The notes: generated by a model from the sequence alone, not told the origin. A stretch of 59,683 bases of DNA from a virus (IMGVR_UViG_3300030106_002282:1-59683); one strand, 5' to 3'. Counted from the first letter of the stretch, positions 1 through 49,739 are shown. A program made the numbers and translations.

Positions 1-52
1 AGGGGTGTTCTTAGTGCGGGGAAACGATAGCTAAAAGGGGGGTCTTTCTAGG
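1..52. repeat. Terminal direct repeat, left copy (assembly circularity signature)
   Basis: 1-52 is identical to 59631-59682. Confidence 0.95.
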
Positions 53-539
53 AATTTGGTTCTTCCTTCTGCAATAGGCTCAATATCTTCTCCTCTATCT
101 CCTCCTGTATATCTTCACTTGGTCTGGTGTCTTTTATCTCTACTGTGTCAGTGAATAGGTTTACTGTTTTACCTAATAGAGACAGTGCCGATATCCTAGC
201 GGAGTCTGAGTCTGCTTCTTGGCTCTCCTTCATAAGTCGTTCTAAGACATAACTCCTTGTTCGCACAGAAGAAGCTACTGTTGAGGTTTCTTTCCTCTCT
301 AATCCCTTCCTAATTGCTAGGGCAACACTAGGGTTGCTTACAAGTCTACTGCAGTCCACGTGAGCGTGTTTCGGGATTGCTCCTGTCTTTGTTCTAGCTA
401 CGTCATAAACTTCCATATAGCAGTCGATATGAGTGTCCAACTTGCCCTTCACTATTTCATTAACAAAGGCTCTTTGTTTGGCGGTTAGATTACGTTCTTT
501 TTTTACGATTTTTAAGTCAGGCGTTTTTGATTGCGTCAT
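48..539 (-). CDS. terS: Terminase small subunit
   Basis: LTAKQRAFVNE N-terminal HTH-like motif and ARISALSLLGK motif typical of TerS; directly upstream of terL across the circular junction. Confidence 0.75.
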   Translation of the reverse strand: MTQSKTPDLKIVKKERNLTAKQRAFVNEIVKGKLDTHIDCYMEVYDVARTKTGAIPKHAHVDCSRLVSNPSVALAIRKGLERKETSTVASSVRTRSYVLERLMKESQEADSDSARISALSLLGKTVNLFTDTVEIKDTRPSEDIQEEIEEKILSLLQKEEPNS

Positions 540-612
540 GCAATATATTATCTGTCACTAGTGAAATAAATACTATGCTCACAAAGTGCTATCAAATAAT
601 ATGTTCTTGATG

Positions 613-642
613 TTGCGTTCTGGTGTGTCTTGTGTTTATAAT
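613..642 (+). promoter_or_regulatory. Sigma70-like early promoter
   Basis: TTGCGT(613-618)-18 nt-TATAAT(637-642) at the head of the + strand operon. Confidence 0.65.
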
Positions 643-645
643 TAC

Positions 646-950
646 TGCATGGACAGACAACAGCGACTTTTGACACTCCCTTCTTTAAGGGTCTTTCGTC
701 ATGCAATATGCGGATTAAAGTGTCATTTGTTGCAGGTCGGCTCACAGCGATTGTCCTAAAACAGTGAGGGTTCTCTAGGTCTGCAACGAGCAGGGTACGA
801 TGAACGATACAGGTCGAGCAAAAGCCATGACACCTGTAATCCCTTTTGCGGTTTAGTAGTGACGTTTGGAATAATTACTGCGATAGGGAGACTCCCTCCA
901 GAGTCCACGAATTAACGTGCCGAAGAGAATCCTAATTATGGGGTTCAAGA
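646..950 (+). ncRNA. Unidentified highly structured RNA / 5' leader with pseudoknot
   Basis: Helices 671-677/719-725, 678-682/687-691, 729-738/778-787, 741-745/764-768, 808-814/832-838 crossed by 818-824/843-849, 890-894/901-905, 906-909/916-919, 927-933/940-946; G-U pairs favour the + strand; no + strand ORF in the track. Confidence 0.55.
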
Positions 951-978
951 AACTCTAACTAATGGAGGTTAGAAAATT

Positions 979-1119
979 ATGACAAAGCAAGAAGTAGAAA
1001 ACTTAATTTCTAAAAAGAAACAAGAACGAAAAGAAATTAATGCGGAACTTATAAGACTGCAGAAAATTAAAAATGACCTTTTTCAAGAAGAATTAATCAA
1101 TTCTTACATGAAATGGTAA
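979..1119 (+). CDS. Small coiled-coil hypothetical protein (46 aa)
   Basis: ATGGAGGT RBS at 962-969; MTKQEVENLISKKKQERKEINAELIRLQKIKNDLFQEELINSYMKW. Confidence 0.7.
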   Translation: MTKQEVENLISKKKQERKEINAELIRLQKIKNDLFQEELINSYMKW

Positions 1120-1121
1120 TA

Positions 1122-1221
1122 GCCTACTGACGTGCTAGTGAAATTCTAGCGAAACGCATTAAATAGATTTAAGTCTAGCCTGTAAAAAGGTTGCTTCTAG
1201 GTGGTTGGCAATAATGCCAAC
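1122..1221 (+). ncRNA. Hammerhead ribozyme, type I, degenerate core (HHR1)
   Basis: Stem I GCCTA/TAGGT; CTGACGT (A9 to U); stem II GCTAG-TGAAATT-CTAGC; GAAA; branched stem III; UUC at 1195-1197; 3' hairpin 1204-1221; same layout as HHR2. Confidence 0.65.
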
Positions 1222-1252
1222 TATTTTAATAACTAACTAATGGAGGTTAGAA

Positions 1253-1666
1253 ATGAAAATAAATTTTATAGAAATAGCAGGATATGAAAGTATTGATGCC
1301 AATATAGATTTCATTAACAATGAAATAACTCCTGTTGATTACGTGAAAAACTTTTCATGTAATGCAGTTCCTGTTGAAGGTGGCGGTCTTTGGTATTCCT
1401 ATACATTTAATAATTTGCTCGTGACTGTTATCTGTCACCCAGGTTCTATTGGTGGTCTTAGCGGTAAATGGGAAATAGGTATCAGAAATAAAGATACAGG
1501 TGAATGGTTAAATGTTCCTAATGGATATATTTCCACAAGTCAGGGAGGTGTCGAGGGTTGGAAATCTTGGAATGAAATCCAGATAATCCTTAAAAAAATT
1601 CTTGCTGACGCTATGGAAGAAATTCGTTTAGAGAGTAAAGAGCCACTTACCTTAGAAGATTTATAA
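1253..1666 (+). CDS. Hypothetical early protein
   Basis: 137-aa ORF with ATGGAGGT RBS at 1240-1247. Confidence 0.8.
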   Translation: MKINFIEIAGYESIDANIDFINNEITPVDYVKNFSCNAVPVEGGGLWYSYTFNNLLVTVICHPGSIGGLSGKWEIGIRNKDTGEWLNVPNGYISTSQGGVEGWKSWNEIQIILKKILADAMEEIRLESKEPLTLEDL

Positions 1667-1766
1667 ATCAACTGACGAGCCTGTGAAATTCAGGCGAAAC
1701 ATTAAACTAGTATCCAGTAATGGACTAACCCTATACGGGTGTCTTGGTGTTAGCAATTTTGCTAAC
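1667..1766 (+). ncRNA. Hammerhead ribozyme, type I (HHR2)
   Basis: ATCAA/TTGGT stem I; CTGACGA 1672-1678; GCCTG-TGAAATT-CAGGC stem II; GAAA 1696-1699; ACA/TGT stem III enclosing two hairpins; GUC triplet 1741-1743; 3' hairpin 1749-1766. Confidence 0.85.
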
Positions 1767-1804
1767 GAATTCTAACTTGGGAAAAAAAAAGATGGAGGTC
1801 TTAT

Positions 1805-2854
1805 ATGAAACCAAGTCAAGCGATACTATCGATGAAATCGATATTAAAGGGTTCTAATACTCCTTACCTTCAAGGTAAGCCAGGTATTGGAAAAAGTGCA
1901 ATTGTTAGGAAACTAGCCGAAGAATTTGCAGAAGATAGAGAGATTGTAAATTCAATTAATCCAACTAAAAAACAGTTTGGGTTTATTGATTTCAGATTGT
2001 CTCTTTATGAGACTGTTGATTTAGGCGGGTTGCCTTACATAGACGAAGATAACCAACAGAAGAGAGCCTTTTTAGGAAATCTTCCTGTAGGTGGCGAGGG
2101 CATATTATTCTTTGATGAATTTGCTCAGGCTCATTCGTCTGTGATGTGTGTCTGCGGACAATTACTCTATGAAAGAAAAATCGGAGAGTATGTTCTGCCT
2201 GAAGGGTGGAAGATTGTCTGTGCGGGAAACAGGGCAACTGACAGAGCAGGAGCAAATAAAATTCCTACTCAAGTTAATGACAGGTGTACGATGTTAAATG
2301 TAGATGAAAACATCAACGACTGGATTGCATGGGCAACTGAGAATGATGTAAGTCCTGACGTATTGGGATTCATTAGTTATGAACCTCAGTACCTTTGCGA
2401 CTTTGACCCAAAAATAACGACTCCACAGCCGAGTCCTCGTTCTTGGGTTCGTCTTTCTGATACATTGAAAACGAATCCGCCAAAAGAAATTTTGCAATTA
2501 GTTTGTGAAGGGGATATTGGCGAGACTGCTTCGATTGAATTTCTTACCTTTTTGTCTTTGAAAAATGACTTGCCGAATGTTCAAGACATTTGCGAAGGCA
2601 AAGACGTAGAAATGATTGACGAGGGCGGTAAATCTTATGCTCTAGTTTGTGCATTAGTTTCGATTCTTAAATCGGAAATAGATAATCCAAACGTAGCTAA
2701 TTATTTTCAAAATAGTCTTAACTATGTTGAGAAATTACCTACTCCAGAATTTGCGATTTTCTATGTTCGTTCTTTGATTGGAGCAATACCAGACTTAGCA
2801 GAAACTTCTACTTATTCTGATTTCAAAATTAGAAATCAAGATTTAGAAGTCTAG
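1805..2854 (+). CDS. MoxR-like AAA+ ATPase
   Basis: Walker A GKPGIGKS, Walker B ILFFDE, AGNR sensor, PSPRSW; followed by a VWA protein. Confidence 0.85.
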   Translation: MKPSQAILSMKSILKGSNTPYLQGKPGIGKSAIVRKLAEEFAEDREIVNSINPTKKQFGFIDFRLSLYETVDLGGLPYIDEDNQQKRAFLGNLPVGGEGILFFDEFAQAHSSVMCVCGQLLYERKIGEYVLPEGWKIVCAGNRATDRAGANKIPTQVNDRCTMLNVDENINDWIAWATENDVSPDVLGFISYEPQYLCDFDPKITTPQPSPRSWVRLSDTLKTNPPKEILQLVCEGDIGETASIEFLTFLSLKNDLPNVQDICEGKDVEMIDEGGKSYALVCALVSILKSEIDNPNVANYFQNSLNYVEKLPTPEFAIFYVRSLIGAIPDLAETSTYSDFKIRNQDLEV

Positions 2855-2868
2855 GTTGAAAAATGAAT

Positions 2869-2923
2869 TGGGCGAGATGTAAAAAAATATTATTCGCTAG
2901 TGAATAAAATTACATCTTGCTCA
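2869..2923 (+). other. Long intergenic hairpin upstream of HHR3
   Basis: TGGGCGAGATGTAA/TTACATCTTGCTCA 14-bp stem with a TCGCTAGTGA motif copy near the apex. Confidence 0.6.
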
Positions 2924-2929
2924 CTTCAA

Positions 2930-2986
2930 TATCTGATATTGGAATGTGTATTCCAACTGACGAGCAGGAAACTGCGAAATCAGATA
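2930..2986 (+). ncRNA. Hammerhead ribozyme, type III (HHR3)
   Basis: TATCTGA/TCAGATA stem III; AUA triplet 2936-2938; TTGGAA-TGTGTA-TTCCAA stem I; CTGACGA 2957-2963; GCAG-GAAA-CTGC stem II; GAAA 2976-2979; complete canonical core. Confidence 0.93.
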
Positions 2987-3016
2987 ACTTTTATCTAACA
3001 GAATGGAGGTTCTAAA

Positions 3017-4003
3017 ATGGATAAAAAATTAACTAATACCTTATCGGAAAACTGTATGTTGGTACGTCTTACTGCAAGACATCCTTCAGGCATTAAGGTC
3101 GATAAGAAGTTAAGAAGCGATTTAGCGGTTGATACGAAAGTATCTGACGATAAATTGTTAGGTGTTTCTAAACATATCTTTGGTCGAAATATCAATAAAG
3201 AGTTTCGCCAAATTTTAGATAAGTTTAGAAATGACTTTTATAAACCTTTAACTTTACCCTGGGACGATTCTTCTTCCCTTGACGAAGAGGGAAAAGTTTT
3301 ATCGGAATGGCGACTTTGCCCTAACACGAATCTTGAGCGACTTCAGTATGAAGTAGACCAAGCGACTCTTGTCTGGGATAAAGAAGTTCAAGGGTTTCTC
3401 AGAACCTATCCTAAACAAATGGAAATGGCGAAGAGAAATTTGGGCGATGCTTTCAGAGAAAGTGATTACATGGATTTTGACAAATTAAGACAAAAGTTTT
3501 TGTTTCAATTTGAAATGACTCCTGTTCCTACTTTCGGAAACGATATCAGACTTAACGTCTCAGAAAAGTTAAGGCAGAGAATAGAAGCGGATGCGATTAA
3601 TCGCCAAAGTAAAAACATCAATAACGTAATGACAATTACTGTTGATGCTTTGCTAGAGCAGGTTAATCACGTTGCAACTAAACTCAAAGAGTATGACCCT
3701 GACAATAAGCAGAAAGGCGGATTCTTTAACAAGTCTAGTTTCGAGAAATTGAGACAAGCGGTTGAAGTGCTACCTTCTATTAATCAGGACGTACTAGGCA
3801 ATAATCAAAATATTGCTGACGCTCATCAAAGTCTTTGTTCTGTTCTTGCAACAATAAATTCTGTTGATTCTCTTAGAGATGAAACAGATTTAGGGAAGCA
3901 AAAACGTGGACAGGTTGCTGAAGGTCTTGAGCGGTCTGTTGATGGACTGAAAGGCAATTTGTTCGACAAAATTTATGGAGGTAAGAAAGATGAAAACTCT
4001 TGA
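3017..4003 (+). CDS. Helical hypothetical protein (DUF3150-like partner of AAA/VWA modules)
   Basis: 328 aa, LTLPW motif, lies between the AAA ATPase and the VWA protein; family assignment from memory. Confidence 0.6.
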   Translation: MDKKLTNTLSENCMLVRLTARHPSGIKVDKKLRSDLAVDTKVSDDKLLGVSKHIFGRNINKEFRQILDKFRNDFYKPLTLPWDDSSSLDEEGKVLSEWRLCPNTNLERLQYEVDQATLVWDKEVQGFLRTYPKQMEMAKRNLGDAFRESDYMDFDKLRQKFLFQFEMTPVPTFGNDIRLNVSEKLRQRIEADAINRQSKNINNVMTITVDALLEQVNHVATKLKEYDPDNKQKGGFFNKSSFEKLRQAVEVLPSINQDVLGNNQNIADAHQSLCSVLATINSVDSLRDETDLGKQKRGQVAEGLERSVDGLKGNLFDKIYGGKKDENS

Positions 4004-5339
4004 TTCCATAATTAAGGCTAGAGCAAAATTGATGAAAGGGCATATTGGCATGGCTAGTATGCTCCTTAATCTTGACTTGGTTGAATGTGAAGAATCAAAG
4101 TGCAATACGATGGCAACAGATGGTAAAAACATTTTTTACTATCCGCCTTTCGTGGATAAATTAACTGAAGCAGAATTGCGAGGTGTACTTGTTCACGAAG
4201 CGTTGCACGTTGTTTATGAGCATCCACTAAGACGTGGTAAACGTCATCCTAAAGTATGGAATATTGCTTGTGATTACGTTATCAATGCTTACTTGTATTG
4301 GGATTTAGGTTTTGAATTGCCTTTTGGCGGTTTACTTGACCATAAATACAAGGGTTGGTCTGCGGAAAAGGTCTATCAACATTTAATTAAAAATGAAAAT
4401 GACCTGCAAGAAGCAATTGAGCAAGTCAAACAGCAGAATCAAGATGCGGACATGGAGGACGATTCGCAAGATTCTGAAATACCAGACACTAGTGAAGAAA
4501 ATATTTCTGAAGAAGCTGACGAAGATAGCGAAGCCGATGGCGGAGAATCTGAGTCAATTGATTTAGATGCTATTCCTTCAACTATTGGCGAGGTATTAGA
4601 TGCAACTGACGATGAAGGAAAGCCTTTGAGTGATGCTGAGATTCAAGAAATTTCAACTGAGATTCAAAGAGCAGTAGCCTTATCTGACAAGTTAGAAATA
4701 GCTGTTGGAAGCGGTACTAATTCATCTTGCGGTGGCAGAATGGAAGAATTGAAAGAAACTTCAATTGACTGGAAAGAGCAATTGAATGACCTCTTACGTT
4801 CTTCTTTTGCTAACGATTATTCGTGGTCGAGACTGAATAAAAGGTTTGCTTGGCAGGGTTTAAATTTGCCGAGTAAAACTAGGTCTCCGCAAGGTGGCGA
4901 ATTAGCGGTTGCAATTGATACTTCAGGTTCTGTATCTCAATACGAATTGAATAAATTTGCTACTGAGATACAAGCTATGGCGGAGGACTGCGGTCTTGAA
5001 AAAATCAGAGTTTGCTACTGTGATACAACTGTTCGTAAAAATGAGCAGGGGGAATGGTGGGATTACTTTGATTTATCTTCTGGCGATGAATTGGAATTAG
5101 CAGTTCGTGGCGGTGGCGGTACAGAGTTTGACCCTGTATTTAATCTGCTGAATGACTACACTGATGATGCCGAAGATATTCAGGCGATGGTCTATTTTAC
5201 AGATGGTTGGGGAGACGTTTCTGAAGACGTTGAACCTGATGTTCCTGTGTTTTGGTGTTGTACTGAAAAAAGCAGTTATTCGGAACGTCTTGCCTTTGGC
5301 GAGGTGGTCTATGTAGATACTGCTAGATTCTACGACTAA
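3990..5339 (+). CDS. DUF2201-like metallopeptidase plus VWA domain protein
   Basis: TMATDG, HEALH zincin motif, WNIACD, acidic linker, MIDAS DTSGS, GGGGT, FTDG; start chosen from ATGGAGGT RBS at 3975-3982. Confidence 0.85.
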   Translation: MKTLDSIIKARAKLMKGHIGMASMLLNLDLVECEESKCNTMATDGKNIFYYPPFVDKLTEAELRGVLVHEALHVVYEHPLRRGKRHPKVWNIACDYVINAYLYWDLGFELPFGGLLDHKYKGWSAEKVYQHLIKNENDLQEAIEQVKQQNQDADMEDDSQDSEIPDTSEENISEEADEDSEADGGESESIDLDAIPSTIGEVLDATDDEGKPLSDAEIQEISTEIQRAVALSDKLEIAVGSGTNSSCGGRMEELKETSIDWKEQLNDLLRSSFANDYSWSRLNKRFAWQGLNLPSKTRSPQGGELAVAIDTSGSVSQYELNKFATEIQAMAEDCGLEKIRVCYCDTTVRKNEQGEWWDYFDLSSGDELELAVRGGGGTEFDPVFNLLNDYTDDAEDIQAMVYFTDGWGDVSEDVEPDVPVFWCCTEKSSYSERLAFGEVVYVDTARFYD

Positions 5340-5350
5340 AAACTTTCTAT

Positions 5351-5391
5351 TAGCGAGTGATATTTGAGGGGTACTCAGATATCACTTGCTA
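5351..5391 (+). other. 18-bp intergenic hairpin upstream of HHR4
   Basis: TAGCGAGTGATATTTGAG-GGGTA-CTCAGATATCACTTGCTA. Confidence 0.65.
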
Positions 5392-5434
5392 TTAGTTTTG
5401 CCCTCTATGAGCCTGTATGGAGGTCTAATTTTAA

Positions 5435-5521
5435 AAACTGATAGCAAAATGTGTGTTTTGCCTGATGAACGCGAAAGCGTACCCTTCTAGGAGGGTGGCT
5501 CAAAAGAGCCGAAATCAGTTT
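5435..5521 (+). ncRNA. Hammerhead ribozyme, type III variant with two inserted hairpins (HHR4)
   Basis: AAACTGA/TCAGTTT stem III; AUA 5441-5443; GCAAAA-TGTGTG-TTTTGC stem I; CTGATGA 5462-5468; extra hairpins 5469-5480 and 5481-5496; GGCTC-AAAA-GAGCC stem II; GAAA 5511-5514. Confidence 0.8.
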
Positions 5522-5548
5522 AACTAACTTTTATAAGATGGAGGTCTT

Positions 5549-5821
5549 ATGAATGATTTAAATATGAAGGTATTCTATAAAAATGTTTATGGTAATGACC
5601 TTTGCTATCCTTTTTGCAACACTGCAAAGAAATTCGCAAAGTTAATTGACCAAAAAACTTTTAATAAATACCACTTGGAAACAATAAAAACTTTGAAATA
5701 TAAAATTGATATTGTTGCTTATAATCCTAAACAAAAAGATGCTTGGGACACTTCTGCTAAATGGATTAAAGAGGATATGAAAGAAAATCCTCAGAGATAC
5801 CAAAACAAGGAGGAGTTATGA
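5549..5821 (+). CDS. Hypothetical protein
   Basis: 90-aa ORF with ATGGAGGTCT RBS; KNVYG..YP motif recurrent in phage proteins. Confidence 0.75.
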   Translation: MNDLNMKVFYKNVYGNDLCYPFCNTAKKFAKLIDQKTFNKYHLETIKTLKYKIDIVAYNPKQKDAWDTSAKWIKEDMKENPQRYQNKEEL

Positions 5822-6018
5822 CTGAGAAAATCATTTTAATTTTAGGTTCTATTTGTATATGTGTTTTCACTACAATTGCTTATTCTCAAGCAGATTATGT
5901 GTTTGAGAATGGTTATCCATCACAAGCAAATTTGCTGATTATTTTTTCGGCAGGTTTGTTCGTGGGTATTTCAATTGCAACTGTTTTTTCCAGATTATTT
6001 TATGGAGATAAAACATGA
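5818..6018 (+). CDS. Small two-TM membrane protein
   Basis: Two hydrophobic segments; ATGA overlap with the upstream gene. Confidence 0.7.
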   Translation: MTEKIILILGSICICVFTTIAYSQADYVFENGYPSQANLLIIFSAGLFVGISIATVFSRLFYGDKT

Positions 6019-6725
6019 ATAGACTGCGAGAAATACAAGAACAACTTGGTAATCTCTTTTCTTTGGAAGGCATGACTAATTTTAACTTCGATAAGAAGGT
6101 TGAATTAAATGCTGACCTGAAAGAGAGAATCGAGGAAGCTTCTTTTGGAAAAATGATTCATCACCCTTTATTGGTTGTTGTGCCTATGACAGATAATCCT
6201 ATATTGATAACTCAATACAACTTGCAATATGAAGCTAAGGTTCTTCAAGTGCAAGAAGCTATTGAACAAAATAATATTCATGGGTTTATCTATTTGCACG
6301 AAAGACCTTACAGGCATGATGCTTTGATAAATGCTTATGCTGAATGGTGGATTCCAGATTCCGATTTAGAATATTGGGACGTTATTGTTTCTGCTTGGAT
6401 AGACTCCGAGAATATATATGCAAATTTATCTTCTTGGAAAAGTTTATTAACAGAACAATATGCAAATCCTCATCTAATGATGGACGAAGAAGAGAAAGCC
6501 TTCTTTGATTCTTTGCCTGACGAGATAACAATATTTCGTGGTGGCATCGATGATAAAGGGTTTTCTTGGACTCTAGATAAGGATAAAGCAAATTGGTTCG
6601 CTAATAGGTTGAATCAAAACGAAGAAGTCTTTGAGAAAACAATCAATAAGAATAATGCTTTGGCATATCTTAATGGTCGTGGAGAATCAGAGATAATTTA
6701 TATTCCAGAAAAGGAGGAAGCATGA
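6015..6725 (+). CDS. Hypothetical protein with C-terminal ADP-ribosyltransferase-like (R-S-E) motifs
   Basis: IFRG ... FSWT ... GESEII motif order. Confidence 0.5.
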   Translation: MNRLREIQEQLGNLFSLEGMTNFNFDKKVELNADLKERIEEASFGKMIHHPLLVVVPMTDNPILITQYNLQYEAKVLQVQEAIEQNNIHGFIYLHERPYRHDALINAYAEWWIPDSDLEYWDVIVSAWIDSENIYANLSSWKSLLTEQYANPHLMMDEEEKAFFDSLPDEITIFRGGIDDKGFSWTLDKDKANWFANRLNQNEEVFEKTINKNNALAYLNGRGESEIIYIPEKEEA

Positions 6726-6853
6726 AACTTACTAAATCACAAAAAGAAATGCTTATATTTGCTTTGAATATTGTGCTAAAAAATTATTGTTCAACACAAC
6801 AAGACGAGCAAAGATACGCAGATTTAATTAAACATATTAAGGAGGAAGCATGA
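6722..6853 (+). CDS. Small hypothetical protein (43 aa)
   Basis: AAGGAGG RBS, ATGA coupling, open frame MKLTKSQKEML...KEEA. Confidence 0.65.
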   Translation: MKLTKSQKEMLIFALNIVLKNYCSTQQDEQRYADLIKHIKEEA

Positions 6854-7008
6854 AACTTGGAGATTATGATTTTTCTTTATCTTTCAGAATAGAAGTTCGC
6901 AATAACGACAAGGAGGAAACTCTTCTTCATGTTGAAGATAGCAGACATTTATCTGATAAAACACTTCTAGCAATTATGGAGGATATTGCAGAAATAAAAA
7001 CAAAATAA
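6850..7008 (+). CDS. Small hypothetical protein (52 aa)
   Basis: AAGGAGG RBS, ATGA coupling, open frame MKLGDYDFSL...EIKTK. Confidence 0.65.
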   Translation: MKLGDYDFSLSFRIEVRNNDKEETLLHVEDSRHLSDKTLLAIMEDIAEIKTK

Positions 7009-7012
7009 AATT

Positions 7013-7055
7013 AAGGCGGTAGCTACTTTAACGAGTAGCTACCGCCTTTTTTTTT
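7013..7055 (+). terminator. Rho-independent terminator ending the early operon
   Basis: AAGGCGGTAGCTACT/AGTAGCTACCGCCTT 15-bp stem running into a T9 tract. Confidence 0.9.
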
Positions 7056-7066
7056 GGTCTGAATAT

Positions 7067-7268
7067 TGTGAATAACTCTTGTATCTTGCTTCCTGGGTTG
7101 CATCCTGGAAAAAAAATATTCACTAGTGATATATATTTACTGCGTTCTAGCGTGGGTGTTTTTTTACAGCTAAAAACACAACAAAATTAATTTTAGTTCC
7201 TGCGTGAATAATATTTTTTTTACCTGTGGATAAACCTGTGGACAAACCTGTGTATAAACTGTTAATAA
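7067..7268. promoter_or_regulatory. DnaA-box cluster (candidate origin or DnaA-binding locus)
   Basis: TGTGAATAA 7067-7075, TGTGGATAA 7225-7233, TGTGGACAA 7237-7245, TGTGTATAA 7249-7257, TGTTAATAA 7260-7268; same orientation, 11-12 bp spacing in the main array. Confidence 0.65.
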
Positions 7269-7271
7269 CTC

Positions 7272-7301
7272 TTGCAATTTGCTATCATTTGGTGATAGAG
7301 T
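7272..7301 (+). promoter_or_regulatory. Sigma70-like promoter reading into non-coding DNA
   Basis: TTGCAA(7272-7277)-18 nt-TAGAGT(7296-7301) with an extended TG. Confidence 0.55.
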
Positions 7302-7306
7302 GGTGA

Positions 7307-7400
7307 ATCTCTTAACAGAGACCTCCATATCTAAAAGTTAGATATTAAGAAGGGATAGTCTTTTAAGTTTCGATTTAGGATTATCCCTTCTACCAAACCC
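7307..7400 (+). ncRNA. Candidate small RNA with exposed anti-Shine-Dalgarno
   Basis: Hairpins 7308-7321, 7327-7345 and 7348-7391 (15 bp); AGACCTCCAT at 7319-7328 is complementary to the early RBSs. Confidence 0.5.
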
Positions 7401-7669
7401 ACTAGTTTTTTCGCCTAAGAATGATAGTCGATTATAGAAATATGATAGTCGATTGTCTGTACCAAAACCTACTGCTGTGTTATTACTCCCGAACACGAAG
7501 CTCCAAACCACCAATTTTTTGTCTAAAAGGCTCTGAAAGGTAATTCTCATCACCAGTGAATAATATTTTACAGATTCCGTTTGGAGCTGTGGAAATCAAC
7601 TAATCTGTGGTGTTGGTTTCACATGAAACATAGCTTTCAATGTGATAGCTTTTTGCTTATAATAATTAG

Positions 7670-7996
7670 ATGTTTGCAGTAGTAAGACACACTTATAAGA
7701 TAGATATCCCTGAACCAAACAATCCCAATTCAACTAAAAGCAAAGCTAATTGGGTACACTTGGTTTGGGTTTTTGAAAATGAAATAGATGCCATAACCTT
7801 TGCTATATCGTTGTTAGACGACCCTCTAATTAAAGCCAATGAATATATGTTGGACTCGGCTATCAATCAACTAGAAAAGGATAGGTATTATCAATTGGGT
7901 AGAGAGTCAGTAGCTATTGCGGAAGTACAGGAATCTCCTGTAATTATATATAAAGATTTAGAAGAGGTAATTGAAGATGAAGAATCTATTCATTAG
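7670..7996 (+). CDS. Hypothetical protein, probably leaderless
   Basis: 108-aa ORF; TATAAT 7658-7663 lies 6 nt before the ATG; no SD. Confidence 0.7.
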   Translation: MFAVVRHTYKIDIPEPNNPNSTKSKANWVHLVWVFENEIDAITFAISLLDDPLIKANEYMLDSAINQLEKDRYYQLGRESVAIAEVQESPVIIYKDLEEVIEDEESIH

Positions 7997-8228
7997 GTGT
8001 TCGCAAGAGACTTATGAACTTGCTCATGCACTTGCAAAGAAAGAAAGTCGTTCCCTAAACAAACAAATAATCCACATGATACACAACGAAGCCGATGTAA
8101 AGGGTGTTGAACTTGAAGAAGATACTGCTGAAGAAGAAGGTAAAATGATTTATTCTGGCAGTTTACCTGAACCTGCTAAAGGTTTGTCAAGGCTTGTTGA
8201 AACAAAGACACAGGACTTTCCTGATTAA
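7977..8228 (+). CDS. Arc/Mnt-like ribbon-helix-helix regulator
   Basis: KNLFIRCSQETYELAHALAKKESRSLNKQIIHMI matches the Arc-family beta-strand plus RSLN pattern. Confidence 0.75.
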   Translation: MKNLFIRCSQETYELAHALAKKESRSLNKQIIHMIHNEADVKGVELEEDTAEEEGKMIYSGSLPEPAKGLSRLVETKTQDFPD

Positions 8229-8715
8229 CATACCAAAAATCTAGCAAAGCGTTAGCACACTCAGAAGTAGTAGCTATCTGGGAAGCGTTTACTCGGTTGG
8301 GGTTATCCGACATGATTCTCCAAAAAACTTTTTCTTTTTCGCCACCGCAGACATCCTTAATCAATCTTTGAACTCCTATCAAGATACAGGCTTTTGGGAC
8401 AGGCTTGGTGTAATTACTTTCACCAGTGAATAATATTTTTTCTAACCCTGGTGCACTCGCAAAACATCCCGATTGGGAAATAATACCTAGATATTTGTTG
8501 CAGACGTTGTGTTGTTTTGCATCCAGATAATCTTCATGGAACATTACGTCTATGATGTGTTGGTCAAGGACAATGGCTCTGCCTAGTTTTGTTTCATCTA
8601 TTGACCGCACACAGACTTTGTGACGTTCATGCAGGTTTGGACTGCCGACATCGTTTAGATGCAGGGTTTCAGTCGAAATCCCAATCGTAGTCGTCTTGGA
8701 CTTCTTCGGCTTCAT
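8176..8715 (-). CDS. Hypothetical protein
   Basis: Long ORF overlapping the primase 3' end; start uncertain. Confidence 0.65.
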   Translation of the reverse strand: MKPKKSKTTTIGISTETLHLNDVGSPNLHERHKVCVRSIDETKLGRAIVLDQHIIDVMFHEDYLDAKQHNVCNKYLGIISQSGCFASAPGLEKILFTGESNYTKPVPKACILIGVQRLIKDVCGGEKEKVFWRIMSDNPNRVNASQIATTSECANALLDFWYVNQESPVSLFQQALTNL

Positions 8716-10429
8716 CGTACCTCCCATTTACAGGGTTGAAAGTAAGGTCTGTCGTACCACATTTAGCACTCCATCCCCACCTAGCTTTCCATACATTAAT
8801 ACTAACATTATCTTTTCCTCTGAAAACTGTCAATCCCATATCTGCTTTACTAAACCAAGCCATAGATTTAGCTATATCAACTCCTGTCACTAGCTGTTTT
8901 TTGCCTCTGTCCGCAGGTTTTGTTGGGTGTGAAACAAAGAAGCAACATACGTCATGTTGTTTGCAAAATAATTGTACTTTCGTGAGCATATCGCTAACCA
9001 TATCCGTTTCTAAACCTTTGTAGTCGGTCTGAATAAAGTTAAAAGGGTCTATGACTAGTATTCTTATGCCATATCTCATTACTGCACTTGCTCCCTTCTC
9101 TAATATGCTTTCAATCGTTGGCAATCCTCCATCTTGATAATCTTGAAATAGTATATGTTCAGTAATCCAATTTTCCGCAAAGTCTTTTTCCTCTTGAGTC
9201 ATGCGTTGATTCTGTCCTTCAAAGAAAGGTTTACCCACCAGACATTGTGCTATTTGCACACTATGAAGCGTTGGCGGTTTTTCAAACGAACAGAAACAAG
9301 TTTTCCATCCGTGAGTTTTGGCTACGTTTACTACTATTTGGTCTATAAATGCTGACTTTCCATCTCCTGGATAGCCTGTGACTACGTTTAAATAGCCTGT
9401 CTGTAAGGTAAATAATTCATCAACTGAAGCAATTCCTGTGCTAACTCCTCTAGGTTTACCCTGCTCATAAAGGTTTTGAAATTCATCTGAGTAATGGTCA
9501 ATACTATTTAGACCATGTAAAGGTACAGGTTCAGCGTTCAATACTTGTTCTCTGACTGTTTTTGCATCTGTTTCAGTCAATAATTCATTAGCATCTTTAC
9601 AACCTTTGTAATCTACTAAATAACATCTAGCTTTGTTGAGCCTACGAGACAACTCATCTGCTAGTATCTGCCCGTTTTCATCTGAATCTGTTGCTAAAAT
9701 TATCCTTTCTACGTCTCTAAATTTGTCTCTCTCTTCCCATACATACTTGAATCTGCCATCTTCACTAGGGTCTATCTTACTATCAGTAATTTTATTAGGT
9801 GCTCCATTAGGAACTGAGTAAACATCTATATTGGAATGTTCACGAAAAGCTTCTTTGATACTTAATTGGTCTATCTCGCCTTCAGTTATCACTATAGTTT
9901 TCTCTATTGTCGGCAAATTATCGTTGTGTATCTGCCTTCCCCACAGCTTAGTAGCGTTATTGTCCCACCAGAAATCCTTTTTCCCATTTGCGGTTCGCCA
10001 TTTGACTGCAATCGTGTTTCCAGAGTCCTGAAACGAAAAACCTATCACTGGTGAATTATTTTTTTCAGTCAATATACAACCGCAATTCTCTGCCGTTTCG
10101 ATACTAATTCCTCTGTTTTTTAACCATTCTGCTGATTTGCCGTCTGTATTATTTTTGGGTGTGGTAATAGTTTTGGGTTCTGGTTTTTTTACTACTGACA
10201 TTTGGACTCCTGTTGTTCTTGGTATTGCTCCGTTAATACCACAATGATGACAATGATATACGATAGTCTCAGCGTTTATATTTACTGATAATGGAGTATC
10301 GGTTCGGTGTTTTTTGCGGTCTTTTTGACATGATGGACAAGTTATTTTGTACTGACCATGCCCTAAATTATTTGTTTTTGGATTGATGCTGATGTGATTT
10401 TTTATTTCACTCTGCTCTTGACTTTGCAT
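8669..10429 (-). CDS. T7 gp4/Twinkle-like DNA primase-helicase
   Basis: Zn finger CPSC..CHHC, TOPRIM ITEGEID and DSDENG, Walker A GYPGDGKS, VIDPFN, HPTK. Confidence 0.92.
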   Translation of the reverse strand: MQSQEQSEIKNHISINPKTNNLGHGQYKITCPSCQKDRKKHRTDTPLSVNINAETIVYHCHHCGINGAIPRTTGVQMSVVKKPEPKTITTPKNNTDGKSAEWLKNRGISIETAENCGCILTEKNNSPVIGFSFQDSGNTIAVKWRTANGKKDFWWDNNATKLWGRQIHNDNLPTIEKTIVITEGEIDQLSIKEAFREHSNIDVYSVPNGAPNKITDSKIDPSEDGRFKYVWEERDKFRDVERIILATDSDENGQILADELSRRLNKARCYLVDYKGCKDANELLTETDAKTVREQVLNAEPVPLHGLNSIDHYSDEFQNLYEQGKPRGVSTGIASVDELFTLQTGYLNVVTGYPGDGKSAFIDQIVVNVAKTHGWKTCFCSFEKPPTLHSVQIAQCLVGKPFFEGQNQRMTQEEKDFAENWITEHILFQDYQDGGLPTIESILEKGASAVMRYGIRILVIDPFNFIQTDYKGLETDMVSDMLTKVQLFCKQHDVCCFFVSHPTKPADRGKKQLVTGVDIAKSMAWFSKADMGLTVFRGKDNVSINVWKARWGWSAKCGTTDLTFNPVNGRYDEAEEVQDDYDWDFD

Positions 10430-10448
10430 AAGACCTCCGTTTATGCTG

Positions 10449-10500
10449 TATATACTTACTACTTAGTAGATACTTATTATTAAAACTTAGTAAGTATATA
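10449..10500. repeat. 13-bp perfect inverted repeat in a TACT/AGTA-rich tract
   Basis: TATATACTTACTA 10449-10461 / TAGTAAGTATATA 10488-10500, just upstream of the primase-helicase. Confidence 0.7.
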
Positions 10501-10506
10501 TACCTA

Positions 10507-10770
10507 CTAAGCACTCTCTTTAATTAAACTTTTATCAATAATATTAGCAATTTGATTTACTAATTTTTTTCTTGATAGTAAAGGATAATCTAATAATTCT
10601 TTTATACTTTTTTTTAACTCTTTTGTGTTAAGATTGTTTCTGGCACAAAGGTTTTTAAAATCTTTAGAATTAAAGTAGGAAATAGCTTTATCACAAATAG
10701 TTTTTTCTTTACTTGCGATATCTCTTATTGCTTGTTTAAGAATTGCGTAATCTAACTCTTGACTCTCCAT
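10507..10770 (-). CDS. Hypothetical protein, probably leaderless
   Basis: AILKQAIRD motif; ATG at 10770 lies 6 nt past the minus-strand -10. Confidence 0.65.
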   Translation of the reverse strand: MESQELDYAILKQAIRDIASKEKTICDKAISYFNSKDFKNLCARNNLNTKELKKSIKELLDYPLLSRKKLVNQIANIIDKSLIKESA

Positions 10771-10776
10771 TCCTAA

Positions 10777-10820
10777 ATAGTAAATCATTACTTGCACATT
10801 TGCAAGACATCAAGTAAACT
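10777..10820. promoter_or_regulatory. Overlapping divergent sigma70 promoters
   Basis: + strand TTGCAC(10792-10797)-17-TAAACT(10815-10820); - strand TTGCAA(10805-10800)-17-TACTAT(10782-10777). Confidence 0.65.
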
Positions 10821-10885
10821 CATTATCAACATCATAAAAGTTGGAGCTTATATGTTTAATTTAAATTTAATAATGGAGAATAAAA

Positions 10886-11341
10886 ATGCCTAATTGGTGT
10901 ATGAATAGAGTTGTAATATCTGGCTCAGAAGAAGATATAAAAAAACTAAAAGAGCAAGTTTCCTCAGAAGATTCTGCTTTAGATTTTAACAAGATAGTAC
11001 CTAGTCCTGATTGGAAGAATATTCCTAATGAAAAAGGACAATTACCCAAACCTGAAGAGTTAAAAAATGGAAATGGAGAAGTAATAGCTATTACTCATAA
11101 CTTTCCTGATGGCACTAATGATACTCGTTCGTACGATTGGCAAATTAAAAATTGGGGTACTAAATGGAATGTTAGTAATGTGGATGTAGTAGCAGAAGAT
11201 TCAGACTCTATAGAGTTTGAGTTTGATACTGCATGGTCTCCACCTGAACCAATTATTTTAAAACTAAGAGAACTTTATCCTGATGTATCTATATCAGCTT
11301 TCTTTGATGAACCTGGTATGCAAATAGGAGGATATTACTAA
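10886..11341 (+). CDS. DUF1281/YubB ferredoxin-like domain protein
   Basis: MPNWC-N, NWGTKW, FDTAWSPP, DEPG motifs. Confidence 0.75.
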   Translation: MPNWCMNRVVISGSEEDIKKLKEQVSSEDSALDFNKIVPSPDWKNIPNEKGQLPKPEELKNGNGEVIAITHNFPDGTNDTRSYDWQIKNWGTKWNVSNVDVVAEDSDSIEFEFDTAWSPPEPIILKLRELYPDVSISAFFDEPGMQIGGYY

Positions 11342-11450
11342 TACAATTATAAAGTCCTACGCTGTTATAAGCACCTGCAGGACGCTGGTTGATGCGATAT
11401 GATGCTAAACAACACCTCAGCGTAGGCATATAATTAAAAAAGGAGCATAA

Positions 11451-11693
11451 ATGAAATTTGAAATTAAAGAAGGTGTACCTCTACCAATCGGTAGGGGAAA
11501 GCCTAGAAAATATGACATACCTTTAGAGACTATGAAAGTTGGCGACCATATCTTAATTGAAATGGCAAAAACAAAAATACCTCAAGAGGTAAAAATAATT
11601 AGGAACTTTGTTTTGAGATATAGGCACAAGAACCCTAATACTAAATTCACAGTAAGACAATTAGAAGAAGGAGTTGGAATATGGAGAATGTAA
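11451..11693 (+). CDS. Small putative DNA-binding protein
   Basis: GRGKPRKY..MKVGD ... GVGIWR pattern; AAGGAG RBS. Confidence 0.65.
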   Translation: MKFEIKEGVPLPIGRGKPRKYDIPLETMKVGDHILIEMAKTKIPQEVKIIRNFVLRYRHKNPNTKFTVRQLEEGVGIWRM

Positions 11694-11845
11694 AAAAAGA
11701 AAGAATATCAATACCGCCAAACAATGAGAAGCTTTGGAGATATCTAACAGAAGGATTATCAGGTAGAGCAAAAGCAAATACTTTGCCTTCTTATCCTAAA
11801 AGTGAAAGTGAAAGAAAAAAAATTCAGGAGGGGAAAGATGTTTAA
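11681..11845 (+). CDS. Small hypothetical protein (54 aa)
   Basis: AAGGAG RBS; open frame fills the gap between neighbours. Confidence 0.5.
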   Translation: MENVKKERISIPPNNEKLWRYLTEGLSGRAKANTLPSYPKSESERKKIQEGKDV

Positions 11846-12122
11846 ATATCTAATTATAGACACAGACGGAGAGGAAACTCACGTTGAGTCAAAAGAAAAA
11901 CCTGACCTCAAAGAAATGCAAGAGATGGTAGGAGGCTATATAGAGATTGTTAAGTGTAAATACAATGATGAATGGAAAACGATGATTCTTAACGAAGAAG
12001 GCAAGTTAAGAAATTTAGACTTAAACACGAAGGCTACCGAAATGTACTCTAATAATGGTATCGGAATACCTGATGTTATTGTTGGCACAGCAATTTTATT
12101 CAAGAACTTTGACTTAGATTAA
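11838..12122 (+). CDS. DUF3846-like protein
   Basis: LKEMQEMVGGYIE, NEEGK, N.KAT, IVG motifs. Confidence 0.75.
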   Translation: MFKYLIIDTDGEETHVESKEKPDLKEMQEMVGGYIEIVKCKYNDEWKTMILNEEGKLRNLDLNTKATEMYSNNGIGIPDVIVGTAILFKNFDLD

Positions 12123-13019
12123 GTGAAATATACCAACGTCAATAACATACCTAAAGAAGTTGTAAGAGCCTTGCATAATGATAGCTATACCAAAGGCGAA
12201 TCTACTATTTCTGTGACAGGTTTGTTGCAACCACCACAAATAAGAATACTTAGAGAGGAGCATGACGAGAACCTAGTTTTAGACGTTTCTGACGAGATTT
12301 GGAAGTTATTAGGGCAAAGTGTTCATTCCATACTAGAACGAGCCAATATGGACTCTACAGACACTATTACAGAGGAACGTATGTATGCCACAGTAAACGG
12401 ATGGACAGTTAGTGGACAGACCGATTCTATTGCTATCGATGAAAAGATTTTAAAAGACTACAAAGTGACTAGTAGTTGGACAGTTGTAAACGCTATGACC
12501 GAAGGCAAGAAAGAATGGGAACAACAGTTGAATTGTTATGATTGGTTATACCGCCAGAACTATCCAGAAAATACTATTCACCAGTTAAATATTATTACAA
12601 TCAACAGAGACTGGAGCAAAAATCAATATCAACGTAGTGGCGGGAACTATCCGTCTGCTCCTGTATCTGTAATCCAAATTCCTAAATGGAGTGATAAACA
12701 GCAAGAAAGGTTTATCCAAGAAAGAGTTTCAATCCACCAAAACGCTGAAGCTGATTATCTAGTCAGCAAGGAATTACCACCTTGTACTGAAGTGGAACAA
12801 TGGAGAAGAAAAGATACTTATCGAGTTATGAAAAAAGGTCGGAAGTCTGCCCTGCGTGTATTGGAGACACAGGAATTAGCCGATGAGTATATAGATGGAC
12901 ACGATGATAAGAATTTAACTATCGAGTTTCTGCAAGGAGAAGCGATACGTTGTAAGGATTATTGTGATGTGTCTGAATTTTGTAATCAATATCAACAGGA
13001 GAAACTTGATGTCAGATGA
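12123..13019 (+). CDS. PD-(D/E)XK (Cas4-like) exonuclease
   Basis: G..VH, EER, SGQTD, DYKVT, QLNCY, C-terminal C...RC..YC...C. Confidence 0.8.
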   Translation: MKYTNVNNIPKEVVRALHNDSYTKGESTISVTGLLQPPQIRILREEHDENLVLDVSDEIWKLLGQSVHSILERANMDSTDTITEERMYATVNGWTVSGQTDSIAIDEKILKDYKVTSSWTVVNAMTEGKKEWEQQLNCYDWLYRQNYPENTIHQLNIITINRDWSKNQYQRSGGNYPSAPVSVIQIPKWSDKQQERFIQERVSIHQNAEADYLVSKELPPCTEVEQWRRKDTYRVMKKGRKSALRVLETQELADEYIDGHDDKNLTIEFLQGEAIRCKDYCDVSEFCNQYQQEKLDVR

Positions 13020-13716
13020 ACTAACTTATGGGGAGGTTTGGGATAACCTTTCTAAAATGGATGTGTCAGAGTACACAGAAGAGAAGATGAAGCTTACTTA
13101 CTTATCTTGGAGCAGAATGTGGATGCTTTTAATGAGCCAATATCCACAAGCACAATATGAATTTGTAGAGTTTGACGGAGTACCTTTTAAGACCCTACCA
13201 GATGGTAGTACGGAAGTTGCTACCAAAATTACTATTGATAACCTAGTCAGAGAAATGCGGTTGCCTGTAATGGATTATAAGAATAATCCTGTAGTCAATC
13301 CTCACGCTAGACAGGTATCAGATAATGCGATGCGATGTTTGGTTAAAAACGTAGCTATGTTTGGTTTAGGCATTTCTGTTTTTGCAGGTATGTCGGATGA
13401 TACTTTGCCTGATGCCGAAAAAGACAAGCAACCAAAGGGCAAAAAAGAAGCAAAACCTAAAGCCGAGTTAGAGCCAGAAACTGTCATTGACAGAGCCACA
13501 GAACAAGACAAAGACGAAGCATGGGCGAAGGTCTTTGTTGAAGGCACAACAAAAGTGATACAAGCTTTCAAAACTAGAGAAGATGTAGTTGATATGTATA
13601 AAGCTAATAGCGAATCTATTGGCATACTCAAAGACAAGTTTCCAGACTACAAAAATTTACTAGATGCGAACATACAAAACCACGTTAATAAACTACCACC
13701 AAAGGAGGATGAATAA
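13009..13716 (+). CDS. DUF1071/Sak3-like single-strand annealing protein
   Basis: LTYLSW, LPVMDYKN, MRCLVK..AMFGLG motifs; adjacent to the exonuclease. Confidence 0.8.
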   Translation: MSDELTYGEVWDNLSKMDVSEYTEEKMKLTYLSWSRMWMLLMSQYPQAQYEFVEFDGVPFKTLPDGSTEVATKITIDNLVREMRLPVMDYKNNPVVNPHARQVSDNAMRCLVKNVAMFGLGISVFAGMSDDTLPDAEKDKQPKGKKEAKPKAELEPETVIDRATEQDKDEAWAKVFVEGTTKVIQAFKTREDVVDMYKANSESIGILKDKFPDYKNLLDANIQNHVNKLPPKEDE

Positions 13717-14018
13717 TGGAAGAACGTATGCAAAGTGATGGAGCAATCTACACTAATAACTATAAACAAAACGACAAACAACCTGATTGGACAGGTAAAG
13801 TTGCTTTGGACAAGGAACTACTAAAAGCTTTAGTAGAGAAGGTAAAGAATGGCGAAGAAGCAGAAATGCGAGTAGCTTTATGGGACAGAAGAAGTAAAAA
13901 TGGCAACGATTATAAGTATGCTCGTTTGGATATCCCACAACCACAAAAGAAAGTAGAACCTACTCAACCTGTAGTTGAAACTAAACCTGAAATTTCTGAT
14001 GATGATATCCCCTTTTAA
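13716..14018 (+). CDS. Single-stranded DNA-binding protein
   Basis: QPDWTGKV OB-like strand, ALW, acidic DDDIPF tail. Confidence 0.75.
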   Translation: MEERMQSDGAIYTNNYKQNDKQPDWTGKVALDKELLKALVEKVKNGEEAEMRVALWDRRSKNGNDYKYARLDIPQPQKKVEPTQPVVETKPEISDDDIPF

Positions 14019-14214
14019 AGACAAAAATCAAAAGTCGGACACTACTAAGTGTCCGCAAAGGGAGGGTTTAGAAAAAATACACAATCATATAGAGCATTGT
14101 ATAACTCACTTTGAGTCAGCAAATGACAACAATCAGGAGATACCTATACACAGTTATAAGATGGTGTTGTATGAACTCAGCGAAATGACAAAAAAACTAT
14201 TAGCTAGTGAATAA
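13975..14214 (+). CDS. Hypothetical protein
   Basis: ORF in operon context; start uncertain. Confidence 0.45.
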   Translation: MKLNLKFLMMISPFKDKNQKSDTTKCPQREGLEKIHNHIEHCITHFESANDNNQEIPIHSYKMVLYELSEMTKKLLASE

Positions 14215-14219
14215 TATTT

Positions 14220-14459
14220 TTGGAGGCACAGATGCAGTTTGAATTTGACGAAAATCAGTCATACGAAACTAATTTTAATAAATGGTTTTCTATGAATACT
14301 GAAGAAAAACTAGGACACAACGAAGAACCATACTCAACAAACATGGCTAAACAAGTGTTTAACGAAATGTACGGCAGTAAAAAGGTAAAATCTACTGAAC
14401 ATGATTTAGTTGAGAGATTAAAGAATGTGAAGCATGACATAAAGAAGGAAAAAACATAA
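14220..14459 (+). CDS. Hypothetical protein
   Basis: ORF in operon; likely start ATG ~14232 after GGAGG. Confidence 0.65.
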   Translation: MEAQMQFEFDENQSYETNFNKWFSMNTEEKLGHNEEPYSTNMAKQVFNEMYGSKKVKSTEHDLVERLKNVKHDIKKEKT

Positions 14460-14662
14460 TGGAAATACCTAAAATAAACCAAGAACTAAGCAATACTCTT
14501 TACCAATATATGAAGAAGGAACACTTAGACACGCACAATAAAATAACCGATGATGAATGGGAAGATTTTATTGATGAATATCAAGATTGTTTTGCCGAAC
14601 AATGTGGCGAACTTGCTCGTGTATTATTTACAGAGTTTTTAATTGATAAGGAGAAAGCATGA
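14459..14662 (+). CDS. Hypothetical acidic protein
   Basis: Translationally coupled ORF. Confidence 0.65.
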   Translation: MEIPKINQELSNTLYQYMKKEHLDTHNKITDDEWEDFIDEYQDCFAEQCGELARVLFTEFLIDKEKA

Positions 14663-14889
14663 CCATAACAGAAAAAGAATCAATCATTTGGGCTAGTGGA
14701 CATTACTTAACGGAACATTTACCAGAAGAATATGATGAATGGACAGATAAAGAACTTGACAGTCATTTATTAGAACTTGTTTGGCAACCTTTTGAATATC
14801 ATTCAGCAGAGCAAATTTGGGAATATATAGAAAATTTAGCTTATGATTTTAAAGAAACCATAAAACATAAATTAGAGGAGGAAGCATGA
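14659..14889 (+). CDS. Hypothetical acidic protein
   Basis: AAGGAG RBS, ATGA coupling. Confidence 0.7.
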   Translation: MTITEKESIIWASGHYLTEHLPEEYDEWTDKELDSHLLELVWQPFEYHSAEQIWEYIENLAYDFKETIKHKLEEEA

Positions 14890-15221
14890 TTGAAGTAGAA
14901 AACTGGATGCAAAAGATTAGGGAACTTGCAGTTTTGATAGAAAAGACTGAATACAATGCTCTCAAATCCGAAGCTGAAGTAAAGAAACTACAAGCCATAC
15001 TAAAAGTAAAAGCATTAGGCGAAGGCATTAAAACTTCATCTGCACAAGACACTTATGCTGAGTCTAAAGAAGAACTGTTTGAAGCTAGACTAAAGATAGC
15101 ACGTTTTAAAAGTGGTCTAAGTGCCTTAAAGGTGCAATTGAAGGCTTTAGAAGTTGGCTTTGAACAATGGCGAACAGAACAAGTATCAGCAAGGAAAGAA
15201 CAAGCTAGATATGGAGCATGA
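14886..15221 (+). CDS. Coiled-coil hypothetical protein
   Basis: GGAGG RBS; helical; WRT..S motif near the C-terminus. Confidence 0.7.
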   Translation: MIEVENWMQKIRELAVLIEKTEYNALKSEAEVKKLQAILKVKALGEGIKTSSAQDTYAESKEELFEARLKIARFKSGLSALKVQLKALEVGFEQWRTEQVSARKEQARYGA

Positions 15222-15520: not shown

Positions 15521-15526
15521 TAAACG

Positions 15527-17240: not shown

Positions 17241-17253
17241 TAGAAGATAAAGT

Positions 17254-17826: not shown

Positions 17827-17827
17827 A

Positions 17828-49709: not shown

Positions 49710-49739
49710 AAAAAATATTTAGCAAATACTATTCACTAG

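Follow-up and report, generated by a model that had tools for sequence, protein, structure and literature searches.

In the viral DNA IMGVR_UViG_3300030106_002282:1-59683 (here the window, i.e. the whole stretch of 59,683 bp, a complete phage genome with a G+C content of 35%), the region 7272-7411 probably encodes a trans-acting anti-Shine-Dalgarno (anti-SD) small RNA (sRNA) that would occlude the ribosome-binding sites (RBS) of the early genes. The seed of this candidate and the early sites changed together among related phages, so that the RNA probably controls early protein synthesis. A phage sRNA directed at the early genes had been proposed in a first-pass annotation of the same DNA; the conserved sRNA gene and the exposed core that complements the early motif stood up to the present analysis, whereas the window copy proved to lack a canonical terminator. 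The features of the locus, in window positions, are as follows.

7222-7259, minus strand: three DnaA-box-like repeats with a 12-nt period, directly 5' of the sRNA promoter
7272-7301, plus strand: sigma-70-like promoter of the candidate sRNA, TTGCAA (7272-7277), 18 nt, TG-n-TAGAGT, read by eye
7307-7411, plus strand: candidate sRNA, with a predicted start about 7 nt after the −10 box and a 3' end either at 7391 or at the T-run 7406-7411
7308-7321, plus strand: predicted hairpin 1 (5-bp stem, 4-nt loop), invariant in 4 aligned sequences, 3 of them distinct
7319-7328, plus strand: seed AGACCTCCAT, the exact complement of ATGGAGGTCT, between hairpins 1 and 2
7327-7345, plus strand: predicted hairpin 2 (8-bp stem), with a hairpin in the same place in 11 of 14 folded homologues
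7348-7391, plus strand: hairpin 3, occupying the place of the relatives' terminator hairpin, with no T-run directly after it
7421-7454, no strand assigned: two exact 13-nt direct repeats ATGATAGTCGATT, from a repeat-family search

As claimed in the first-pass annotation, a promoter at 7272-7301 points into non-coding DNA that folds. Its second part reads TGaTAGAGT (7293-7301); with 8 of 12 consensus matches it fell below the threshold of the promoter scan and is therefore absent from the scan list, and it is conserved in relatives. The RNA 7308-7411 is predicted to form three hairpins (z = −4.3), with CCUCC (7322-7326) unpaired, in agreement with the claimed position of the seed at the first linker. 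When compared with Rfam 15, the whole window gave no match at the gathering score, and only chance-level matches fell in 7260-7420. A near-palindrome, TTGCA-N3-TGCAA, overlaps the −35 region (7272-7287), is perfect in several relatives and may be an operator. A second copy of the upstream half of the promoter (7260-7283), 83% identical, lies at 7067-7090, just past the early terminator, and is absent from close relatives.

Sequence comparison establishes the architecture of the gene and the invariance of its core. Five IMG/VR loci with 83-94% nucleotide identity to the window were found via the ATPase, three of which reach the sRNA region (two distinct sequences). In the alignment of these close relatives (4 rows including the window, 3 distinct), the promoter and positions 7308-7346 are invariant; the transcription-start flank and everything past 7347 diverge and contain insertions of some 50 and 27 nt. 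The sRNA family is common in IMG/VR, where a single protein query, with the primase/helicase, recovered 66 loci (58-97% amino acid identity). Flank of 1,900 nt or more is available for 56 loci. In 51 of these, a scripted criterion recognizes stable hairpins together with CCTCCA and a sigma-70-like promoter, 1.1-2.0 kb from the stop codon of the primase gene and without exception on the opposite strand; the remaining 5 (L037, L043, L066, L069 and L070) have variant copies recognized by eye. In 27 distinct sequences, the layout consists of a repeat array, the promoter, a 5' part that varies (14-132 nt), CCTCCA, in most cases a short hairpin, and a terminator. The relatives' promoter (28 sequences) reads TTGCAA, TTGCAT or TTGCTT, 16-18 nt, and TATATT or TATAGT, with a −10 box better than that of the window. 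The predicted sRNAs are 83-194 nt long, most ending in a G+C-rich hairpin followed by 8-10 T, and the terminator stem shows compensatory changes in 8 of 10 pairs.

Conservation of the seed had been named beforehand as a check, and among 23 distinct aligned sequences (mean column identity 48%), ACCTCCA is the sole invariant block. CCUCC is followed by A in every one of the 51 loci called by script; 2 of the 5 variants recognized by eye have G there. The predicted folds of 14 homologues are stable (z = −3.5 to −6.6), with CCUCC wholly single-stranded in 9 and partly paired in the other 5; hairpin 2 is missing from those of L045, L047 and L062. A covariance model built from the relatives (R1) matches window positions 7302-7410 with 44.5 bits (E = 4.7 × 10−5; the window is in the training set). 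This model is dominated by the terminator, matching that of the early operon at 6981-7054 (E = 0.022) and missing divergent copies, and the scripted and by-eye calls were therefore relied on instead. An exact 17-mer scan of IMG/VR returned close relatives only, plus a chance match within a coding region of L006, and in a scan with a degenerate promoter pattern, 7 of 116 stretches among the matches listed have the RNA, apparently in phage types already sampled.

The octamer ATGGAGGT has 10 matches in the window compared with 1.09 expected, a count reached in none of 100 shuffles. On the plus strand, copies start at 962, 1240, 1792, 3003, 3975, 5417, 5538 and 22284; two are on the minus strand, at 7321-7328 and 38882. 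Six copies precede, by 5-9 nt, the ATGs at 979, 1253, 1805, 3017, 3990 and 5549, i.e. the first six early genes, exactly as the first-pass annotation had stated, together with the orphan copy at 5417. Its further observation that three copies (1792, 5417 and 5538) extend to the 10-mer ATGGAGGTCT is likewise correct: the 10-mer has 4 matches compared with 0.06 expected, and its sole minus-strand copy is 7319-7328, so that the seed is the exact 10-nt complement that had been claimed. The early sites are the following.

962-969, plus strand: early RBS ATGGAGGT, gene 979-1119
1240-1247, plus strand: early RBS, gene 1253-1666
1792-1801, plus strand: early RBS ATGGAGGTCT, MoxR-like ATPase gene 1805-2854
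3003-3010, plus strand: early RBS, gene 3017-4003
3975-3982, plus strand: early RBS, gene 3990-5339 (phrog_1314 relative)
5538-5547, plus strand: early RBS ATGGAGGTCT, gene 5549-5821
5417-5426, plus strand: orphan ATGGAGGTCT, no nearby start codon, 5' of a hammerhead-like element

The orphan copy has a predicted cis partner, CCUCUAU, a few bases to its 5' side, with which it would form a hairpin (5404-5426) that resembles an SD/anti-SD pair and stands at the 3' end of the mRNA of the preceding gene. It is present in 4 of the 5 close relatives searched, two of which have TCA replacing TCT.

In terms of the base preceding GGAG, the early sites form a distinct class. In the window, this base is T in 6 of the 7 early-operon sites; of 21 sites in the other genes, 16 have A and 3 have T, consistent with the earlier description of the downstream and late sites as AGGAG/AAGGAG-like. 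Across 22 representative phages, the share of sites with T before GGAG is 66 of 87 in the early operon and 45 of 157 elsewhere (odds ratio 7.8, p ~ 10−12; crude gene calls, and statistics that ignore kinship). UGGAGG, the usual core of the early sites, complements CCUCCA in the RNA; in downstream and late genes, the extended site reads AAGGAG(G), as suits an ordinary host anti-SD, which ends in CCUCCUU. A host 16S rRNA ending in ACCUCCA had been raised in the first-pass annotation as an independent explanation of the early sites; the late SDs, AAGGAG(G), point instead to an ordinary host anti-SD, an indirect argument read from the phage SDs and not from host 16S rRNA.

The early sites also tend toward the loop of a short hairpin, with a stem of at least 5 bp in 67 of 103 sites compared with 24% of flank shuffles. 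Such hairpins were seen at all six early sites of the window and at homologous sites in loci L011-L072. Their stems differ from gene to gene yet keep pairing (e.g. AAGA/UCUU, AGAA/UUCU and CUAA/UUAG, and in relatives AAUUC/GAAUU and GUCC/GGAC), and the loop holds GGAG or UGGAGG.

Comparison of clades indicates that seed and sites co-vary. In the window clade, the RNA has CCUCCAU and every early site AUGGAGG; a large clade combines the seed CCUCCAAG with sites CUUGGAGG throughout, and its sister has the seed CCUCCAAAA and sites UUUGGAGG. Where the seed starts with AUCCUCCAAU, the sites are AUUGGAGGAU, with 12, 11 and 10 matching bases in L026, L018 and L054, respectively. Two phages have the core CCUCCG and belong to separate clades in a quick primase tree: in L069 (CCUCCGAGU), both early-class sites are ACUCGGAGG, a 9-nt match, and in L037 there is one CGGAGG site, while two more sites reach 10 bp via the other flank and a G-U pair. 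Averaged over the best three, contiguous matches are 8.0 nt long with a phage's own RNA and 7.05 nt long with the RNAs of other phages (38 phages, 22 seed types; the observed value was reached in none of 50,000 label permutations). Duplex energies show the same direction, with −14.6 kcal/mol for own pairs and −13.5 kcal/mol for cross pairs (permutation p = 0.001), and a reciprocal index of own versus sister was positive in 10 of 11 pairs, three of which sample the same split. The co-variation of RBS and seed that had been suggested as a check was thus found in part: the flanks vary together, but incompletely and with one contrary sister pair. If confirmed, the sRNA would explain why early sites are uniform within a genome and differ between related genomes.

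Under the favoured reading, the single-stranded core (A)CCUCC(A) would resemble the ribosomal anti-SD except at the base after CCUCC, and the private site UGGAGG, usually in a hairpin loop, would, compared with an ordinary site, be the better partner of the sRNA (8-10 bp in the window). Ribosomal pairing would be confined to GGAGG(U), the flanking bases being added by the sRNA, and AAGGAGG sites would have the reverse preference. The sRNA would bind the early sites in competition with the 30S subunit and, on accumulating, would lower the synthesis of early proteins. We infer transcription of the gene, repression as the direction of the effect, its timing and any control by DnaA from the sequence.

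The early mRNAs had also been described as ribozyme-processed. A type III hammerhead match over the full length of the model and a weaker one at 1652-1705 (20.3 bits) speak in part for this, and both fall below the Rfam threshold; the better match is listed here.

2931-2985, plus strand: type III hammerhead-like ribozyme between early genes, 30.7 bits (Rfam gathering score, 48.5), E = 2.2 × 10−5 in a 101-nt search, whole model aligned

Two further hammerhead-like elements were seen by eye, at about 1128-1165 and about 5437-5515; one has the core change CUGACGU, the other extra hairpins in the place of stem II. Cleavage by a hammerhead would leave 5'-OH ends. According to PMC3014915, RNase E and RNase G favour 5'-monophosphate ends. 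Processed in this way, the early mRNAs may thus persist and require a shut-off of their own.

A broader proposal, which appears possible though rather doubtful, is that these phages use a private SD/anti-SD code, whereby a phage silences its own early mRNAs, spares late and host translation, and belongs to an immunity group defined by the RNA. If so, the sRNA would copy the ribosomal anti-SD save at the flanks, the early genes would bear the matching variant of the site, and the mRNAs thus switched off may be long-lived following ribozyme cleavage. Given that seed flanks and sites drift jointly in each clade, a superinfecting phage of the same type would then be silenced and one of another type would not.

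Ranked by simple duplex energy with the sRNA, the window targets 1805 and 5549 come first of 75 (−19.3 kcal/mol), and the other four early genes fifth to tenth. The fourth place belongs to the ribosome site of the primase/helicase gene, CGGAGGTCTT (10433-10441, minus strand, start 10429), which has the 3' flank of the early sites. Before a middle-region gene at 15218, an 11-nt match to the seed and the start of hairpin 2, TAGATATGGAG (15203-15213), may be a further target or a chance occurrence.

Several observations weigh against the occlusion of early sites by such an RNA. When the cost of opening hairpins is included by co-folding, the six early leaders rank 4, 6, 10, 11, 17 and 22 of 37, below three ordinary sites, so that thermodynamics alone predicts no specificity. 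The scan lists neither a promoter nor a terminator for the window's copy of the sRNA; the window clade is without a T-run beside hairpin 3, the T-run beginning 15 nt after it, which makes the 3' end of the window sRNA uncertain, and transcription may read through. The co-variation is partial: several clades are mixed (e.g. a AAUGGAGG site beside a CCUCCAAG seed), the CGGAGG site also occurs in some CCUCCA phages, the sister pair L054/L065 is negative, and the index, when computed from energies, is favourable for only 7 of the 11 pairs. The permutation tests ignore kinship, so that an inherited chance match is counted several times, and the gene starts of the relatives are from a simple caller.

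The surroundings of the gene bear on a different role. The minus-strand DnaA-box-like 9-mers are TTATCCACA (7225-7233), a perfect copy of the DnaA-box consensus, and TTGTCCACA (7237-7245) and TTATACACA (7249-7257), one base off each; a DnaA-box array thus does adjoin the sRNA, as had been noted. Genome-wide, the loose DnaA-box pattern is not enriched (92 found, 93 expected). The array is kept in most relatives; in one clade (L021, L022, L026, L033-L035, L040, L041 and L043), palindromic CCACAACATCTTGTGG-type repeats take the place of the DnaA boxes, and the RNA and its core are kept. It is possible that DnaA controls the sRNA, or that a protein does so at the −35 palindrome TTGCA-N3-TGCAA. In many relatives, repeats of the GATAGTC type (in the window, 7352-7358 and 7421-7454) are found within the terminator stem, with one or two more following it, and may be origin iterons; as they also occur 3' of the RNA in relatives, 7421-7454 may be a replication origin. 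The window clade instead has an ACCAA motif after the hairpins.

Such an arrangement could mean that the transcript serves mainly in replication, activating or priming an origin made up of the DnaA boxes and the GATAGTC-type repeats, with CCUCC kept for an unrelated reason. The position between the DnaA-box array and direct repeats recurs in relatives, GGGATAGTC is often within the terminator stem, and the primase/helicase gene is nearby. We nevertheless regard this as unlikely, because it leaves unexplained both the tracking of each phage's early sites by the core flanks and the separate UGGAGG class of these sites, and one clade has swapped the boxes for other repeats and kept the RNA. A replication role and the action on early sites could coexist.

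The co-folding ranks are what a general anti-SD sponge would lead one to expect, that is, an RNA acting on any strong GGAGG, e.g. in host mRNAs during shut-off, with the early phage sites not being specific targets. CCUCC is complementary to every strong site, and in that model, binding at three ordinary sites (14232, 11838 and 14886) equals or exceeds that at the early ones. However, the A after CCUCC in the script-called loci fits the U of the early class and not the A of ordinary sites, whereas a host anti-SD would, to judge from the late-gene SDs, have U there, and flank matches to phage sites that are specific to a clade and 9-12 nt long would be hard to explain; we therefore judge the sponge improbable.

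The missing terminator of the window copy, by which transcription may continue, would also suit a cis-acting leader of the downstream plus-strand genes (7670-8228) with no separate RNA. This is highly improbable given that most relatives have a strong terminator with 8-10 U directly after the element, that a separate promoter-like TATAAT was seen by eye 5' of 7670, and that no GGAGG partner was seen downstream. Scarcely any weight can be given to the reading of the minus-strand copy as an ordinary RBS, coding sequence or chance match: a 52-aa open reading frame (ORF) does start at an ATG in the motif, but the corresponding ORFs span 4-51 aa in 8 relatives, no ATG exists in the CCUCCAA clades, the architecture of the relatives runs along the plus strand, and the 10-mer is expected only 0.06 times per genome. 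The minus-strand ORF was rejected as not conserved, with lengths of 35, 51, 11, 4, 10, 15, 17 and 8 aa in the relatives checked (L005, L010, L017, L018, L011, L014, L072 and L066).

Small RNAs that block ribosome sites are well known. The c4 RNA of the temperate phages P1 and P7 is cut from the same transcript as its single target. In mechanism, it is the closest to the anti-SD sRNA proposed here: as described in the available part of PMC12197685, c4 (immI) is a phage RNA that blocks translation by pairing around the RBS, and its complementary sequences differ between related phages and set specificity. Unlike c4, the candidate sRNA is transcribed, as predicted, from a promoter of its own and in most relatives ends at its own terminator, the anti-SD itself forms the core, and at least six sites in one operon match it; it matches neither c4 nor any other Rfam family. 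Also unlike c4, no integrase was found among the window proteins scanned, nor any relative, prophages included, when the primase was compared with 185,579 prokaryote genomes, and these phages appear lytic. Among bacterial regulators, RNAIII and the Rsa RNAs (UCCC motifs) of Staphylococcus and RoxS of Bacillus act in trans through short C-rich seeds on the SD of several mRNAs; they are host-encoded, and their seeds are usually in hairpin loops, in contrast to a phage-encoded RNA with the seed in a linker and targets that bear a dedicated site variant. In purpose, T4 RegB is the closest, as far as the available sections of PMC3014915 describe it; RegB is a protein endoribonuclease, whereas the agent proposed here is an RNA pairing with the site. 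Tandem hammerheads flanking single phage or prophage genes, with suggested processing into single-gene mRNAs, have been reported (Perreault et al. 2011, PMC3088659); the hammerhead-like elements among the early genes show the same arrangement, and the accessible portion of that paper mentions neither a partner small RNA nor a special ribosome site.

Thus, the combination of a stand-alone phage gene, an anti-SD-like seed and matched sites on a whole early block is found in none of the compared systems. Limited full-text literature searches and the available part of the 2025 review PMC12197685 yielded no phage RNA that imitates the ribosomal anti-SD and has a dedicated class of early sites. If confirmed, the sRNA would be an RNA-only counterpart of T4 RegB, and its family would offer natural sets of seeds and sites with which to test how a few flanking bases decide between ribosome and regulator.

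The early block runs on the plus strand from about 650 to a strong terminator.

7013-7048, plus strand: intrinsic terminator of the early operon, 16 pairs and then a T-run, about 260 nt 5' of the sRNA start

Its products include the MoxR-like ATPase, the phrog_1314 relative and several proteins without a family match. An untranslated 311-nt leader (650-960) precedes the first early ORF; it is about 91% conserved in close relatives, and its fold is weakly more stable than shuffles (z = −2.0). The terminator is followed by about 620 nt of non-coding DNA, two small plus-strand ORFs and, beyond these, the primase/helicase gene (8669-10429, minus strand). There are no tRNA genes in the window. The large terminase subunit (TerL) is 54-57% identical to those of Pelagibacter phage HTVC027P and two uncultured phages, and 49% identical to those of some cyanophages. 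With named phages, only such distant proteins are held in common (TerL, 54-57%; primase, 32%), and no cultured host can therefore be read from them; BLAST searches of 6900-8000 and 1-20000 against named phages gave no match.

Two minor features lie outside the early control region or extend beyond it. An ORF of 2,764 aa occupies 18583-26877 on the minus strand. The motif C(T/C)AGTGAATAATATTT has 18 copies compared with 2.6 expected (up to 3 mismatches allowed), among them those at 2885-2912, 7111-7138, 7553-7568, 8423-8438, 14204-14219, 18209-18224, 37855-37882 and 49724-49739; some copies are paired head-to-head about CTAG, a similar ACTGGTAAATAATATTT recurs in relatives, and the motif may be a phage-specific promoter or operator.

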